From: Promethearchaeota archaeon
GTDB lineage: Archaea > Asgardarchaeota > Lokiarchaeia > Sigyniarchaeales > SOKP01
Length of the DNA: 64,000 nucleotides
NCBI GenBank assembly: GCA_048938855.1
Contig: JBHLLT010000005.1
Location: 103,571-167,570, forward strand
Direction: 5' to 3'
In this document: positions 4,940 to 54,974 of the stretch, piece by piece
Position numbering within the stretch: the stretch's first letter is position 1
Layout of the letters: the number at the start of each line of letters is the position of its first letter
Program-made: the position numbers and the translations under genes
Notes under the pieces: generated by a model
What the model saw: the letters and a program-made list of their open reading frames with translations, nothing else
Databases searched by the model: none
Told to the model about the DNA's origin: nothing

Positions 4940-5671
4940 TTATACCAAATACTTTAACCCTGCTCTCACTTTATAGGTTTTATTAATTCTGTCTAATTCA
5001 ATAAAACGCTTAATTTCTAAATTATTTAAAAAATCTCGCATCTCTACTTTATCTTTTTTTAATTCTTCCGCTAAACCTTCAATATTATTCTCGTAATTTC
5101 GAAGTGTCTGGAGTAAAGATGAATATTCTTCATAAATATGGTTAACTAAGTAAGTGATAGATTCTCTTATATTTAGATTAGTTTCTGTACTTGTTGGAAA
5201 AATTTTACTATCTTCTGGCAAATAATTTTGGGATCGAATTACTTCTGGAGGGCGAGCACTTTTAATATCTTGTTTATTTGCTAAATACACTATAGGAGTA
5301 TTTGGAGGTAATATTTTCCTAATCGAGTTCAGTATCATTATCGCACTATCATCTTTCTCTGGAGCAGCAGCATCGAATAAAAAGATGATTCCATCTGAAC
5401 CACTAGTGCAAATACTTCTCATTACAGAAAATCGCAACAGACCTGGTGTTCCAAATAAAAAGACATCGAATCCATTTAGTTTTACGCTGCCTAAATCCAT
5501 TGCAACTGTGTAAAACTTATCATCCTTACCTTTAGCTTCAACATTCAATGCATTACTGTCTAAAGCTCTTATATAGCTTGACTTTCCCGACTGAAGAGGT
5601 CCTGAAACTAATATTTTTATTTTTTTCACCACACGATTACTAATGCAATTGAAAGTTGATTTTACTTTCAT
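4940..5671 (-). CDS. Small GTPase (MglA/CvnD-like) with C-terminal winged-helix-like extension
   Basis: G1 GPLQSGKS, TVAMDLG, LFGTPG, G4 NKQD; real start may be the GTG near 5632. Confidence 0.85.
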   Translation of the reverse strand: MKVKSTFNCISNRVVKKIKILVSGPLQSGKSSYIRALDSNALNVEAKGKDDKFYTVAMDLGSVKLNGFDVFLFGTPGLLRFSVMRSICTSGSDGIIFLFDAAAPEKDDSAIMILNSIRKILPPNTPIVYLANKQDIKSARPPEVIRSQNYLPEDSKIFPTSTETNLNIRESITYLVNHIYEEYSSLLQTLRNYENNIEGLAEELKKDKVEMRDFLNNLEIKRFIELDRINKTYKVRAGLKYLV

Positions 5672-14448: not shown

Positions 14449-15051
14449 CTAGTTAAACCAATTAACAGCTGAAACTAACTTGTGCTTATAATATTTCCCT
14501 AAAATTAATCTTAGGATGTCCTCAAAACAATCTAAAACCCCCTCTCCACTAAGCGCAATTGTAAATTTCCACTCTAAAACCCTAAATTTATCATACTTTA
14601 TTTCATCTAAGAAATTTCTTGGATTAAATTTGTCTGGTAAATCTTGTTTGTTAAATGCAAGAATTATTGGTATTTCTTTGAGTGATTCACGGAAATAAGA
14701 GATAAGTTCTTGCCACGATGCTAAATTGCGCTCATATACTTCCTCTTGAGAATCAGCTATAAAAATGATACCATCAACAGCTCTTAGGGTTATTGGTCTG
14801 GTAACAAAATAAAAATCTTGTCCAGTTGTAGTATAGATGTGTAGTTTTAATTTCCATTCCTCATTTTGGAATGTAACAGTACCATAATCAAAAAATAACG
14901 TCCTATTTACTGTAGATTCAATACTTTGGAGTGCTTCTCCCTTTCCAAAGTGGGAAAACAAAGCTTTTATAGTAGTAGTCTTTCCTGATAGTGCTGGACC
15001 AAAATACACAATTTTAATGCTGATTGTCTTATCACAGTGATCAATAATCAT
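14449..15051 (-). CDS. mglA: MglA-like small GTPase
   Basis: KIVYFGPALSGKTT, RTLFFDY, YTTTGQDFY, VDGIIFIADSQ, NKQDLP. Confidence 0.9.
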   Translation of the reverse strand: MIIDHCDKTISIKIVYFGPALSGKTTTIKALFSHFGKGEALQSIESTVNRTLFFDYGTVTFQNEEWKLKLHIYTTTGQDFYFVTRPITLRAVDGIIFIADSQEEVYERNLASWQELISYFRESLKEIPIILAFNKQDLPDKFNPRNFLDEIKYDKFRVLEWKFTIALSGEGVLDCFEDILRLILGKYYKHKLVSAVNWFN

Positions 15052-23360: not shown

Positions 23361-25127
23361 GTGAAAATTCATATGAAAAAAAGTTATGTGATATTTTTTG
23401 TTTTTATTAGTTTCTTTTTATTAAATTTCTTAAATACTCGATTGAGTATAACTACGAGCGCTTCATGTTTAAACTTTAAAATTAGAAACGATTATGGAGT
23501 TTATTTTGGTAATAATGAAGATCACGCTATTCCCCAGATTTCTAACACCGTTATAACTTTTGTACCGAATGGCTCAATATGGTATGATGGCTCAACAATA
23601 ATGTATGGAGCTGCTATACTTGGCTATACTAATGTAAGTGGATTAAGTTGGTTTCAAGGAGGGATGAATGAAAAGGGATTAGCATTTGATTTAACCTCTG
23701 TACCTTATACAACGCCAAATCTTCATAGCGAGAGACCGCAGAATTTAGTCCCGGAACTATTCAGTTGTGAAACAGTTACAGAAGTTATTGATTATAAAGC
23801 AGCACATGGAGTTTATCAACAAGAGGGAAGCATTCAATCAATGTATCTTGATATCACGGGGGAATCTGTAGTGATTAACATAGGGGTGGATGGTGAAATC
23901 GATTTTTTCCGTAATAATGAAACTTTTCAATTAGCTTCTAATTATTATTTTAATGATACTTCACGAGGTAATCCAAGTTCAGATGCAATTAGAAGATATA
24001 ATGCTGCGGAACAAAAACTTAAAGATATTAACGCAAGTAGTCCTATCTCGATAGAATATATCATAAATGTTTTAGATGCAGCTCATTTTGAAGGACCACT
24101 TGTAAATACTTTATATTCGAACATTTTTGACGTTGAAAACGGCATTATTTATCTGTATTATTTTCACCAATTTGGAGAAGTTGTAATATTAAATCTTGAA
24201 GAAGAATTAGCTAAAGGTTGGCATTCTTATCGAATTTGTGATTTATTTTCTCAGGATCTTGTAGATAAAGCATTAAATGAATATCAAAATTATTCAATTT
24301 TGATACGATTTTTGCCAACTGATATCCTACTTTTATTTGCGACAATTCTTCTTGATATAATTATTAGTATATACACAATATTTCTAATTATTAAGAAATT
24401 GGTCCATAAAATTGGTAAGCCTAACCAAGAAAGAAAGCTTAAAGCGAATATTGATTCATCTAAAGGACTCCGTATGCAAATATTTCTTTCCTTGGGTACA
24501 ATTTGGTCTTTTTTAAGCTTCTCGATGATCTACTGGAATCATTCTGGAGAATGGTGGCCATTTTTTGATAACATTCCTATTTTACAATTACCTCTCTTAC
24601 CCTTTTATGCCTTTCATAATTTTTTCTTGTTAATTAGTGTACTTAGCATTTTTCTAATTGCATTTCTTTCATTTTCATTTAGCAACAAAGGAGAGTTTGT
24701 TTTATTAATAAAAAGTGGCTTAACTCTTGGAAAAGAAAAAAAATGGAGACTTATAATTAACTTTAGTATTCCAATATTATTAGGTATCGTAATTCTCATT
24801 CTAGAACGATTCAATTTCATTGCTAAGGTAGATTGGCTGACGTTTATAATAATGTATCCTTTAATAGTAGTTATGCTAATGATACTCATTCCATTAGCCA
24901 AAAAGAAGGCCATTAAAGACCAAAATGAGCCCAAAGATAGATCTATAATATATCTGCTAAAAACCAGTGTTTTTTTAATTTTAACCTGGGCAATTTGGTT
25001 TTTACCACTTCTTTTAACTGGGGTCTTGGATCATATGTATATTTTATTCCTGTTGACCCTATGTATATCTTTAATTGTTGTTTCCTGTATTGAGTTTTCT
25101 AATAATTACCGAAAGCATGGAAAATGA
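23361..25127 (+). CDS. Exported Ntn-hydrolase (C45/choloylglycine hydrolase-like) fused to a polytopic membrane domain
   Basis: Signal peptide, then AS-C-LNF...FGNNED, GGMNEKGL, SNY, RRY, TLYSNIFD; about 7 C-terminal TMs. Confidence 0.8.
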   Translation: MKIHMKKSYVIFFVFISFFLLNFLNTRLSITTSASCLNFKIRNDYGVYFGNNEDHAIPQISNTVITFVPNGSIWYDGSTIMYGAAILGYTNVSGLSWFQGGMNEKGLAFDLTSVPYTTPNLHSERPQNLVPELFSCETVTEVIDYKAAHGVYQQEGSIQSMYLDITGESVVINIGVDGEIDFFRNNETFQLASNYYFNDTSRGNPSSDAIRRYNAAEQKLKDINASSPISIEYIINVLDAAHFEGPLVNTLYSNIFDVENGIIYLYYFHQFGEVVILNLEEELAKGWHSYRICDLFSQDLVDKALNEYQNYSILIRFLPTDILLLFATILLDIIISIYTIFLIIKKLVHKIGKPNQERKLKANIDSSKGLRMQIFLSLGTIWSFLSFSMIYWNHSGEWWPFFDNIPILQLPLLPFYAFHNFFLLISVLSIFLIAFLSFSFSNKGEFVLLIKSGLTLGKEKKWRLIINFSIPILLGIVILILERFNFIAKVDWLTFIIMYPLIVVMLMILIPLAKKKAIKDQNEPKDRSIIYLLKTSVFLILTWAIWFLPLLLTGVLDHMYILFLLTLCISLIVVSCIEFSNNYRKHGK

Positions 25128-25838: not shown

Positions 25839-28253
25839 ATGAAAATAAAATTGAAAAATGTTATTGCTTTTTTGTTGTTATTTTTTGTAGTCTTTTCAAT
25901 TTCCACTCAAATTAATATTAAAAATTGTAATGAACCTACTCAAGGGGAAATAGGAATTAGAAGATTAAATTTAAAGCAAGCAGGGTCTTGGAATAATTTT
26001 ACATTTATCCACTTTACTGATTTAAATTGGACTGTTGCGAGTAATTACGATTGGTGTTCTGGTTCAGGTACTTGGGGTGACCCTTATTTAATCGAAAACA
26101 TGATAATTAATGCGAGTGATTCTCCAACTGGGAGCGGCATTTTTATTGAAAATTCCGTTAATGTTTATTTTACAATTAGAAATGTTACAATATTTGAAGC
26201 CACCAATGGAATTAGATTAGAAAATACGAATAAAGGAACCTTAGTTAATAATTCATTATTAAACAACATCGAATCAGGAATTTATGCCGAAAATTGCGTT
26301 AACATTACGATTTCGAGAAATCAATTAATTAATAATGGTAAATTTGGATTATATTTATACTCAAATTGCCTTAATAATAAAATAGTTGAAAATACTGTAA
26401 AAAATAATGGTGCAATTTTTGGAGATGCTGGAATTTATCTTGAAAATCTTTGCAATGATAATGAAATCCTAGAAAATCATGTATATGATAACAATGTTTA
26501 CGGGATAAATCTTGAAAACTCTTGTGAAGGAAACTTGATTTATAATAATACACTTAAAAATCTTATAACAAATCAGCAAGATTATGGTATAAGATTAAAT
26601 AGTGGTTGTAATCAGAATAATATCTCAAGAAATTTAATGGAAAATCTTGATAATTATGGAATATACTTGATTACCTCTGATGGAAACTCAATATCGAATA
26701 ATAAAATATTTGATATCTCTACTGGAATGTACATATTAATAGCTCAGCAAAGTGAATTAATGAGCAATACGATATCTGGTGGTTCTATAGCAATTAGTAT
26801 GAGTGCCTGTAATGATGGCGATATAATTGGTAATTTTATAAATAATACAGCTAGTTATGGTATAAGAATCTACACAAATTCCGACGACAATGAGTTTAGC
26901 GATAATATTATTAAAGATAATATTGGTATTGGAATAGAACTTTACACGCCTTTGAATGATAATAATTTGTTCTATAAAAATTCCTTTATCTCAAATGGAG
27001 TTCACGTTTTTGATAATGGAACGGCAAATTTTTGGAATAATACAATGATCGGGAATTATTGGGATAATTACACCGGTTCAGATTTAGATAACAATCACAT
27101 TGGTGATACCCCATTTAATATTCTTGGTGGAGCAAATTCAATCGATAATCTTCCTATAGTTGACCATGATTCCCCCAGTATTATAATTAATACTCCAACT
27201 TCGAGTATATATGGCTCCAATGCACCTGAATTTAACATAATTGTCAATGAAACTTATATTTATTCCATGTGGTATACTATAAATAATAGTGTTAAAAGAT
27301 ACTATTTTACAGAGAACGGAACAATTAACCAAGGCGCATGGGACGCATTAAATGATGGTAATGTAATTATTACGTTTTATGTTCGAGATATCACATGGAA
27401 AATTGGTTCTAATTCGATAGATTTAATTAAAAGTTCCTCTCAAGGCCCTGATGGTGGACCTTTTCCTTTCCAGATAATTATTATCATTATTATTAGTATC
27501 ATTCTAATATTGGTGATAATAATTACTGGAGTCGTAGCGAGAGGGATGACAATTAAGCGAAAAATAAAAAAATCAAGAAATTTAAATGAAGAACAGCTAG
27601 AGAAAGCACAATACTTTAAAGATGTCACAAGTATTCTTACAATTTTAGCCATACATAAAGAATCAGGTTTATGTCTTTCGAAAATTGCCCTTCAGGAGGG
27701 TATTGGTTTGGATGAAAATTTATTTACTGGTTTTATATCTGCAATGGGAAGTTTTAAAAATGAACTTGCTAAACAGATGGGTCTACGAGTTCGGGGTGAA
27801 GGTGGAGATAATACTATCGTGTATAATGAATTTACAATAACTCTTATGGATGGTGAATATCTTAGATTAGGCTTAGTTTCACATAAAAGTCTTGGAGATT
27901 CAATAAAAGTACATTGTGGACAGGTTTTAAGGGCTTATGAAATTAAACGTGTTAATGATTTAAAAAATTTTGATGGTGAAATCCAAATTTTCAAAGATTT
28001 TGAGGAGACAATTGAAACAGGGCTTGACATGAATTTAAATAAAAAATCCTTCCTTAATGTAAAAGAATTAAGTAAATATAATGCTCATGAATCATTTAAA
28101 AACATTCTGATTGATTTTAGTTCGAGGTCTGAAGGATTTTATCCTTCAGAAATTGCTGTTATCCTTGTACAAGAAATGAATATTTCAAGTCAAGAAGCTC
28201 ATTTTATGGTCTACGAAGCCTATAAAAATCATCTATTTATACCAATAACCTAA
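25839..28253 (+). CDS. Single-pass receptor-like protein: signal peptide, NosD/PbH1 beta-helix, Ig-like domain, TM, cytoplasmic longin-like domain, wHTH-like tail
   Basis: GSGTWGDPYLIEN, repeated N-I-xx-N...GI-x-L units, GNYWDNY; long Ile-rich TM; ILAIHKESGLCL...LFTGFISAMGSF..EL...NFDGEIQIF. Confidence 0.82.
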   Translation: MKIKLKNVIAFLLLFFVVFSISTQINIKNCNEPTQGEIGIRRLNLKQAGSWNNFTFIHFTDLNWTVASNYDWCSGSGTWGDPYLIENMIINASDSPTGSGIFIENSVNVYFTIRNVTIFEATNGIRLENTNKGTLVNNSLLNNIESGIYAENCVNITISRNQLINNGKFGLYLYSNCLNNKIVENTVKNNGAIFGDAGIYLENLCNDNEILENHVYDNNVYGINLENSCEGNLIYNNTLKNLITNQQDYGIRLNSGCNQNNISRNLMENLDNYGIYLITSDGNSISNNKIFDISTGMYILIAQQSELMSNTISGGSIAISMSACNDGDIIGNFINNTASYGIRIYTNSDDNEFSDNIIKDNIGIGIELYTPLNDNNLFYKNSFISNGVHVFDNGTANFWNNTMIGNYWDNYTGSDLDNNHIGDTPFNILGGANSIDNLPIVDHDSPSIIINTPTSSIYGSNAPEFNIIVNETYIYSMWYTINNSVKRYYFTENGTINQGAWDALNDGNVIITFYVRDITWKIGSNSIDLIKSSSQGPDGGPFPFQIIIIIIISIILILVIIITGVVARGMTIKRKIKKSRNLNEEQLEKAQYFKDVTSILTILAIHKESGLCLSKIALQEGIGLDENLFTGFISAMGSFKNELAKQMGLRVRGEGGDNTIVYNEFTITLMDGEYLRLGLVSHKSLGDSIKVHCGQVLRAYEIKRVNDLKNFDGEIQIFKDFEETIETGLDMNLNKKSFLNVKELSKYNAHESFKNILIDFSSRSEGFYPSEIAVILVQEMNISSQEAHFMVYEAYKNHLFIPIT

Positions 28254-54872: not shown

Positions 54873-54974
54873 TGGGAGAGGGGGGATTCGAACCCCCGGC
54901 CCCTTGGTCCCAAACCAAGATTCACGCTGTAGAGAAGAGTCCTACAGTATCATACCAAGCTAGACCACCCTCCC
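54873..54974 (-). tRNA. tRNA-Pro(UGG) with a 28-nt intron at position 25/26 (54921-54948); CCA not encoded
   Basis: Acceptor GGGAGGG/CTCTCCC-A; D arm GTCT-AGCTTGGTA-TGAT; anticodon arm CTTGG-TTTGGGA-CCAAG; T arm GGGGG-TTCGAAT-CCCCC; bulge-helix-bulge at the intron ends. Confidence 0.95.

Follow-up and report, generated by a model that had tools for sequence, protein, structure and literature searches.

Asgard archaea carry many eukaryote-like genes, and those for longin and roadblock domains and for small GTPases belong to the most expanded of them. The expansion of longins in this group is itself already known. Domains of the longin and roadblock types generally work in pairs, one domain joined to another of either type, and what such a pair holds is usually a small GTPase; the two types differ in that longin has an extra C-terminal helix in place of the N-terminal helix of roadblock. 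We found no description of a transmembrane or receptor form of an Asgard longin protein in the searchable literature, which does not include the asCOG tables. Here we analysed one gene, positions 25839 to 28253 of a 64-kb stretch (64,000 nucleotides, called the window in the following) of contig JBHLLT010000005.1 from a Promethearchaeota archaeon. Its product of 804 amino acids very probably joins an extracellular beta-helix, through a single transmembrane helix, to a cytoplasmic tail with a longin fold.

The described structure closest to this tail is the longin domain of a Lokiarchaeota Roadblock-Longin protein (8yqg), which comes from the same phylum and has the same alpha/beta/alpha sandwich. 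It was the best match of the tail model (Z 11.1 over 137 residues) in a VIA structure search of 48,161 chains, made independently of Foldseek; the other Asgard longin/roadblock structures 9jue, 7yh1 and 7f8m are grouped with it. These proteins are soluble and have no detectable sequence similarity to the one studied here, whereas the latter has a tail attached to a transmembrane helix and an extra C-terminal domain. Longin SNAREs (VAMP7, Sec22b and Ykt6) are also attached to the membrane with their longin in the cytoplasm (Z 11.0 for VAMP7 and 10.4 for Sec22), but they are built as N-terminal longin, SNARE motif and C-terminal anchor with no ectodomain, while here the order is ectodomain, transmembrane helix and longin, with no SNARE motif. 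The first longin of the Mon1/Fuzzy/HPS1 family (PF19036) was matched at Z 10.9 in Fuzzy/CPLANE, 7.7-9.0 in Mon1-Ccz1 and 7.5-8.7 in human MON1A-CCZ1, and we take the 'SG' turn between beta1 and beta2 of the tail and its first helix (D..L..GF..A...F) to resemble this family. Unlike the tri-longin subunits of Rab guanine nucleotide exchange factors (GEFs) in PF19036, the tail has no direct match to the family, possesses one longin and not three, and belongs to a membrane-spanning protein.

With Ragulator-Rag and MglB-MglA (Z 8.6-10.2) the shared idea is that of a membrane-anchored longin/roadblock platform for GTPases, which by analogy might also apply here. Ragulator is anchored by a lipidated adaptor, whereas the 804-amino-acid protein uses its own transmembrane helix behind an ectodomain and has a longin-type topology. 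Concerning proteins with NosD/CASH-type beta-helices, the ectodomain repeats match them strongly, and the rest of the architecture is unrelated. Asgard longins of the NPRL2/NPRL3 type likewise combine a longin with a small C-terminal domain (a GATOR1 chain was matched at Z 8.3); no match to Pfam NPR2 (PF06218) was found across the organism's own genome at E <= 1. The text cited for these longins reports their expansion in Asgard archaea and their fusion to signalling domains, and it makes no mention of transmembrane or extracellular forms (bioRxiv 10.1101/2020.10.19.343400).

Architecture and membrane topology

The open reading frame (ORF) extends from an ATG start to a stop codon, and its ends are exactly those of the original prediction, in which a model that saw only the sequence and a list of ORFs had described a receptor-like protein linking an extracellular beta-helix to a cytoplasmic longin-like domain. 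The features of the product are collected in Table 1, and we are highly confident of the architecture and of the fold described below.

Table 1. Features of the 804-amino-acid protein and their positions in the window
Feature	Residues	Position	Strand	Basis
Whole gene, predicted type-I single-pass membrane protein	1-804	25839..28253	+	ORF list and translation, stop codon included
N-terminal signal peptide or signal anchor	1-28	25839..25922	+	Basic MKIKLK, then hydrophobic residues
Right-handed parallel beta-helix (NosD/CASH type), predicted extracellular	29-441	25923..27161	+	Pfam, TIGR03804
Candidate Ig-like stalk and Ser/Gly/Pro linker	442-541	27162..27461	+	ESM Atlas model match, Big_13 in homologue P0202
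Predicted transmembrane helix	542-567	27462..27539	+	Kyte-Doolittle peak 3.6 at 544-566
Juxtamembrane basic stretch and helix alpha0	568-598	27540..27632	+	Positive-inside residues, model helix 10-24
Cytoplasmic longin-fold core (modelled)	599-734	27633..28040	+	AlphaFold2, VIA, Foldseek, hhalign, orthologue identity
Small alpha/beta domain, possibly winged-helix-like	735-804	28041..28250	+	AlphaFold2 of the part alone

Behind the single predicted transmembrane helix (~545-567) comes RGMTIKRKIKKSR, a positive-inside flank. On the N-terminal side of this helix the protein has 15 N-X-S/T sequons, mostly in the beta-helix, and eight cysteines, against one sequon and two cysteines on the C-terminal side, and because of this asymmetry the C-terminus is considered cytoplasmic. 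The predicted layout is that of a type-I single-pass protein, with a signal, an ectodomain outside the cell, one transmembrane helix and the C-terminal part inside, and it is repeated in most of the homologues. The tail had been placed inside the cell from the beginning, and both the flank and the asymmetry agree with this placement, at the level of a prediction. The juxtamembrane segment ends in an F-x-D motif, whose aspartate (D595) is kept in 92% of the family members.

At the N-terminus, hydrophobic residues 8-26 stand directly behind the basic MKIKLK, in line with the signal peptide already proposed, either as a cleavable peptide or as an anchor. The beta-helix was recognised over residues ~99-413 by Pfam NosD (5e-35) and Beta_helix (6e-27), and TIGR03804 para_beta_helix repeats match the ectodomain at 1.5e-12. 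Asparagine makes up 16.7% of the ectodomain, and the cysteines form a ladder (153/177/205/229/257) with a step of 24-28 residues, or about one per coil, so that the Asn-rich beta-helix with regularly placed cysteines of the original prediction was recovered. No Pfam family was found in the Ig-like segment at E <= 10; residues 436-541 of the ESM Atlas model of this protein align with Big_7/Big_13 Ig-like domains (TM-score 0.73-0.78) and the homologue P0202 bears Big_13, which is a lead towards an Ig-like segment here, as had been suggested.

Similar beta-helix/Ig ectodomains are found in the organism's own genome on proteins whose cytoplasmic tails have just 8-19 residues. Moreover, two genes (L073, G000:C91:16439-17290, and L074, G000:C2:3020-3933) repeat the Ig-like ectodomain in front of other cytoplasmic tails of 283-305 amino acids, which have no Pfam match and are unrelated to the longin module (hhalign probability 0.2%). 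Within this genome, ectodomain modules of this kind are joined to several distinct inner ends.

Fold of the cytoplasmic tail

The tail was taken as residues 575-804 (230 amino acids) and modelled by AlphaFold2 on an alignment of 29 sequences (A1), with a predicted local distance difference test score (pLDDT) of 91.3 and a predicted template modelling score of 0.87. Its core shows the order beta-beta-alpha-beta-beta-beta-alpha-alpha, preceded by the juxtamembrane helix and followed by a small helical/beta domain. In the numbering of the model, the strands are at 25-32, 38-43, 84-88, 91-97 and 101-107, the helices at 52-72, 113-135 and 146-160, and the juxtamembrane helix at 10-24. The top 50 VIA matches of this model are longin/roadblock proteins without exception (Z 7.5-11.1): after 8yqg and VAMP7 they include Fuzzy/CPLANE and the MK-D1 Roadblock3 (both Z 10.9) and MglB (Z 10.2), and, at lower ranks, TRAPP, AP sigma, SRX, Mon1-Ccz1, FLCN and GATOR1. 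Foldseek against the PDB gave matches of probability 1.0 (E ~6e-5 to 4e-4) to MglB, LAMTOR2/3, the VAMP7 longin, Asgard roadblock, Fuzzy-Inturned and TRAPPII.

The VIA alignments also allow the two types of domain to be distinguished. Longin matches cover 119-137 residues, from 24 to 160 of the model, whereas roadblock matches cover 101-108 residues, approximately 20 to 132, starting past the first helix of roadblock itself. Since the longin alignments include the last helix (146-160) and the roadblock alignments stop at ~132, the topology is that of a longin. The model places the core in the longin/roadblock superfamily, as a three-layer sandwich (alpha/beta/alpha) whose antiparallel sheet has five strands and whose elements follow the longin-type order. 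The longin call had originally been made by pattern recognition, on motifs that are all present (IHKESGLCL at 605, DENLFTGF at 625, YNEFTITL at 662 and FDGEIQIF at 711), and the modelled fold bears it out.

Direct sequence comparisons with known families gave no assignment for the tail: no Pfam family at E <= 10, the curated longin profiles (Longin, Fuz_longin_1, Sybindin, Sedlin_N, SRX, NPR2 and Folliculin) included, and no NCBIfam match. Among PDB sequences the tail alone has one chance-level match (Hemophilin, E 0.59) and the family profile built on A1 finds no solved chain at E <= 10. Distant longin proteins were then sought in the organism's own genome with the profile of the module. One of them, a stand-alone longin of 128 amino acids (L063), is matched by the family profile with an hhalign probability of 95.4% (E 1.8e-8) and is itself recognised by Pfam Fuz_longin_1 (33.6 bits, cut-off 26.1). 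The longin core of the tail also matches (95.8%, E 7.9e-9) the longin half of a protein of 292 amino acids (L047, G000:C62:27911-28789), in which a longin (5-126) is fused to a Roc/Ras/Arf-type GTPase (131-291). The Fuz_longin_1 model directly reaches at most 17.2 bits on this fusion and 12.3 bits on one soluble paralogue of the family, and the tie of the tail to the Mon1/Fuzzy-type family (PF19036) is therefore transitive, passing from the family profile to the stand-alone longin and from the latter to PF19036. Upstream of the fusion gene, at a distance of 1.2 kb, there is another gene for a small GTPase.

The last 70 residues, folded alone on a separate alignment (A3), reach pLDDT > 90 over the domain, with a helix-strand-helix-helix-strand pattern. 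Their best structural matches are weak (Foldseek E 0.58, VIA Z 5.7, none > 8) and comprise peptide-binding domains of the RRE/PqqD type plus winged helix-turn-helix regulators (MarR, PerR, AsnC, LexA). The domain has a net charge of -1 in this protein, with a family mean of +0.5, the third helix has a mean of -0.3, and across the family no basic recognition helix or surface was found in it. The domain may be winged-helix-like and is probably protein-binding. Of the winged-helix-like end that had been read from the sequence, the existence of a small, confidently modelled alpha/beta domain was confirmed, while its winged-helix identity fared less well, given the weakness of these matches.

Reuse, distribution and conservation of the module

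The tail was searched for with HMMER, exhaustively, over 1.84 billion cluster representatives, and the module was found in 234 of them (E <= 1e-3). The usual build is a signal peptide, a long and variable ectodomain, one transmembrane helix, 5-25 residues and the module, for a total length of ~300 to >2,000 amino acids; stand-alone forms of 231-257 amino acids also occur. In 46 long members the ectodomains include Big_1 (9), MG4 (6), Big_3_5 (3), NosD/Beta_helix (2), PMBR and SpaA, and no Pfam model covers the module. The recurrence of the same cytoplasmic module behind swapped ectodomains in Asgard genomes, which had been proposed as a check of the receptor reading, was accordingly observed.

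The organism's own genome has about 12 full copies, eight in single-pass proteins (730-1,559 amino acids), three in soluble proteins (~456 amino acids) and one in a polytopic protein. The polytopic one is L039 (G000:C1:43255-45468), a protein of 738 amino acids with ~10 or more hydrophobic segments and the longin core alone at its C-terminus (614-736, E 3e-19), from which it appears that the module follows multi-pass membrane domains too. At another locus (G000:C90:45862-50627) a soluble module paralogue of 456 amino acids lies divergent from a single-pass surface protein of 987 amino acids, ~430 bp apart.

Across the phylum, a module match at E <= 1e-10 is present in 278 of the 301 Asgard genomes sampled and in 89 of 90 high-quality ones, and the sample comprises 30 families, of which 26 have matches. 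The Atlas taxa of the module are Archaea for 100%, and the source names are Loki, Thor, Hel, Heimdall, Hod and Hermod; taken together, these taxa and names point to a module restricted to Asgard archaea. One partial homologue (P0188, 540 amino acids, tail 77% identical) is labelled 'Candidatus Neomarinimicrobiota bacterium' and lies on a contig of 2.4 kb; it is probably a binning error and not a bacterial member. Two further anomalies suggest chimeric or artificial library sequences: P0020 (1,373 amino acids), in which the tail was matched in 13 separate stretches, and single members of alignment A2 with isolated strong matches to the unrelated Spiralin, MBD, KH_12, Skp1 and Gp_dh_C. The public names of the homologues are "hypothetical", "parallel beta-helix repeat protein" and "NosD".

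Eight orthologues were compared part by part, and their identity to the protein is 79-90% in the longin core, 60-67% in the beta-helix, 38-62% in the transmembrane helix and 60-71% in the C-terminal domain. Judged by these identities, purifying selection acts most strongly on the longin core.

A helical extension of ~170-200 amino acids stands behind the module in 27 of 148 homologues, soluble paralogues included. In the organism's own genome it is carried by L036 (G000:C70:85075-86445), L037 (C90:49257-50624) and L038 (C72:1865-3229), and a receptor of 1,559 amino acids (L041, C34:77564-82240) has the module followed by the same extension. It matches Pfam MIT below threshold (17.5-20.8 bits, cut-off 30) and shows weak matches to Vps4-MIT or consensus TPR, by which a link to ESCRT is possible.

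Relationship to small GTPases

Fusions of longin with GTPase, which are common, and of roadblock with GTPase have been described in Asgard archaea and interpreted as pointing to a functional interaction (PMC10933270; bioRxiv 10.1101/2020.10.19.343400). The homology of the tail to a GTPase-fused longin is moderate evidence for coupling, and it is the sole positive link to GTPases that we can infer for the tail. The two ORFs which the original prediction had named as GTPase candidates (4940-5671 and 14449-15051) do encode small GTPases, but they are distant, the nearer one being 10.8 kb from the gene, in a genome that possesses about 100 small GTPase genes.

Several results weigh against a reading of the protein as a receptor whose tail docks such partners. 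Of 13 module paralogues (12 full-length and one core-only), 23% have a GTPase gene no farther than 5 kb away, compared with 21% of background ORFs. The neighbourhoods of close orthologous loci, of which a single-protein query returned 13, have no shared gene order, and no GTPase gene is present at 12 orthologous loci. Similarly, a GTPase hidden Markov model found no such domain in the 150 best module-bearing proteins. A shared longin fold is not proof of GTPase binding, since longin SNAREs and AP sigma subunits make other contacts through it. Ligand binding by the beta-helix would follow from its family resemblance, and none of the sequencing runs listed is of RNA. It should be noted, however, that few Asgard GTPases share an operon with longin/roadblock genes (PMC10933270), which makes the missing synteny weak evidence against coupling. 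In view of all this, a small GTPase as the partner of the tail is a tentative proposal, with the balance leaning somewhat against it.

One paralogue (C91:19621-21915), a single case, is located between two GTPase genes and near a roadblock gene. The locus in question (G000:C91:12872-26096) contains a surface protein of 1,473 amino acids with an unknown cytoplasmic tail of 283 amino acids, a GTPase-containing protein of 518 amino acids and a module receptor of 764 amino acids, together with two further small GTPases and the roadblock gene (C91:23873-24124).

Proposed role and alternative explanations

Outside the cell, the beta-helix on its Ig-like stalk would probably bind or act on a glycan or the surface of a partner cell, as its fold family suggests. 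Inside, the longin would stand ~30 residues from the membrane, followed by the small winged-helix-like domain, and the tail would most likely be a membrane-anchored docking platform. Since longin and roadblock domains generally act in pairs, the tail may pair with itself upon clustering of the ectodomains, or alternatively with soluble proteins that carry paralogous modules or with the longin, homologous to its own, of longin-GTPase fusion proteins. Such pairing would position a cytoplasmic partner beneath an engaged ectodomain. The binding of a ligand, the pairing of the tail, the nature of its partner and a possible activity as GEF or GTPase-activating protein (GAP) are what we infer from the above. 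We consider the chances even that the protein is, overall, a glycosylated type-I surface protein with a longin docking tail, and the role of the tail as a docking platform, taken by itself, could about equally well hold or fail.

The protein could instead be a structural surface glycoprotein or adhesin of an Asgard envelope that has no S-layer, with a longin tail that sorts, clusters or anchors it without signalling, for example to ESCRT-type or cytoskeletal machinery, protrusions or vesicles. We regard this explanation as rather unlikely and still as one to be taken seriously. The surface of cultured Lokiarchaeia bears numerous proteins in no regular order and lacks an S-layer (PMC9834061), and the same ectodomain modules occur on the short-tailed proteins described above (8-19 cytoplasmic residues), which are plain anchored surface proteins. 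The lack of a genomic link to GTPases is also in agreement with it, as is the MIT-like extension of the 27 homologues and of the soluble paralogues of this genome, except that this extension is absent from the 804-amino-acid protein and that the MIT assignment is weak. A specific docking role fits better with a longin core that is more conserved than the ectodomain and homologous to GTPase-fused longins. The adhesin explanation overlaps with the preferred reading of a surface protein with a docking tail, as the tail would be a docking platform in both and what differs is the partner. A membrane-anchored carbohydrate-active enzyme (a beta-helix lyase, hydrolase or epimerase), whose tail would only regulate or position it, is improbable. 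The NosD/CASH and pectin-lyase-like class of beta-helices is rich in polysaccharide-modifying enzymes and there is a weak match to the AlgG epimerase (E 0.47), but no catalytic family exceeds its threshold, and the occurrence of the same tail behind non-enzymatic Ig-like and macroglobulin ectodomains implies that the role of the tail is independent of a beta-helix enzyme.

The C-terminal domain raises the further idea of a membrane-tethered one-component transcription regulator binding DNA through it. Its helix-strand-helix-helix-strand pattern and the MarR, PerR, AsnC and LexA matches would be consistent with this, yet these matches do not rise above noise (Foldseek E >= 0.58, VIA Z <= 5.7) and equally many are to peptide-binding RRE/PqqD-type domains; moreover the domain is near neutral and the helix at the recognition position has no net positive charge, which makes the idea very improbable. 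Hardly tenable at all is the function given by the public name, that of NosD, a periplasmic protein needed for the maturation of nitrous oxide reductase. The Pfam NosD match speaks for it, and the NCBI entry identical to the 804-amino-acid protein is labelled 'nitrous oxide reductase family maturation protein NosD'. Nevertheless, the protein reaches 88.5 bits with the NCBIfam subfamily model TIGR04247, whose curated cut-off is 300, so that the name "NosD maturation protein" was rejected as unsupported, and the match is limited to the beta-helix repeats (profile 143-329 on residues 241-429), leaving the Ig stalk, the transmembrane helix and the longin tail of 230 amino acids outside. A true NosD is not known to have any of these three parts. 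No nos functions are found among the neighbouring genes; Pfam nos_propeller has no match in the genome, which is uninformative because control genomes are equally blank. Of the 86 homologues listed, some two dozen bear misleading NosD names, including "NosD domain-containing protein".

Genomic context

The assembly that contains the window has 3.95 Mb and a completeness of 97%, and the window is AT-rich (G+C ~30%). Close orthologues of the protein come from metagenome-assembled genomes of Promethearchaeota (Asgard, Loki-group). The upstream neighbour (23361-25127, +) encodes 588 amino acids; its N-terminal part is weakly AAT/Ntn-hydrolase-like (Pfam AAT 22.3 bits, cut-off 23.2), and its C-terminal half, judged by eye from the translation, looks multi-spanning. 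A tRNA-Arg(TCT) gene of 98 nt (window 54873-54970, -) probably contains an intron, which fits an archaeal genome. A scan for bacterial-type promoters and terminators remained at chance level, its model being not applicable to an archaeon.

Significance for Asgard archaea

The tail is a small, well-folding domain and could serve as a bait for finding its partner. Going farther, it may be supposed that Asgard archaea possess, phylum-wide, type-I receptors with a longin output that couple surface contact to small-GTPase switches via soluble longins or longin-GTPase fusions; we consider this doubtful at present. If true, such receptors would represent a precursor, in prokaryotes, of the route that in eukaryotes leads, at membranes, from a receptor to a longin GEF/GAP and from there to a GTPase. 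If the partner of the tail is a GTPase, then surface-tied, membrane-localised GTPase regulation would be older than eukaryotes.

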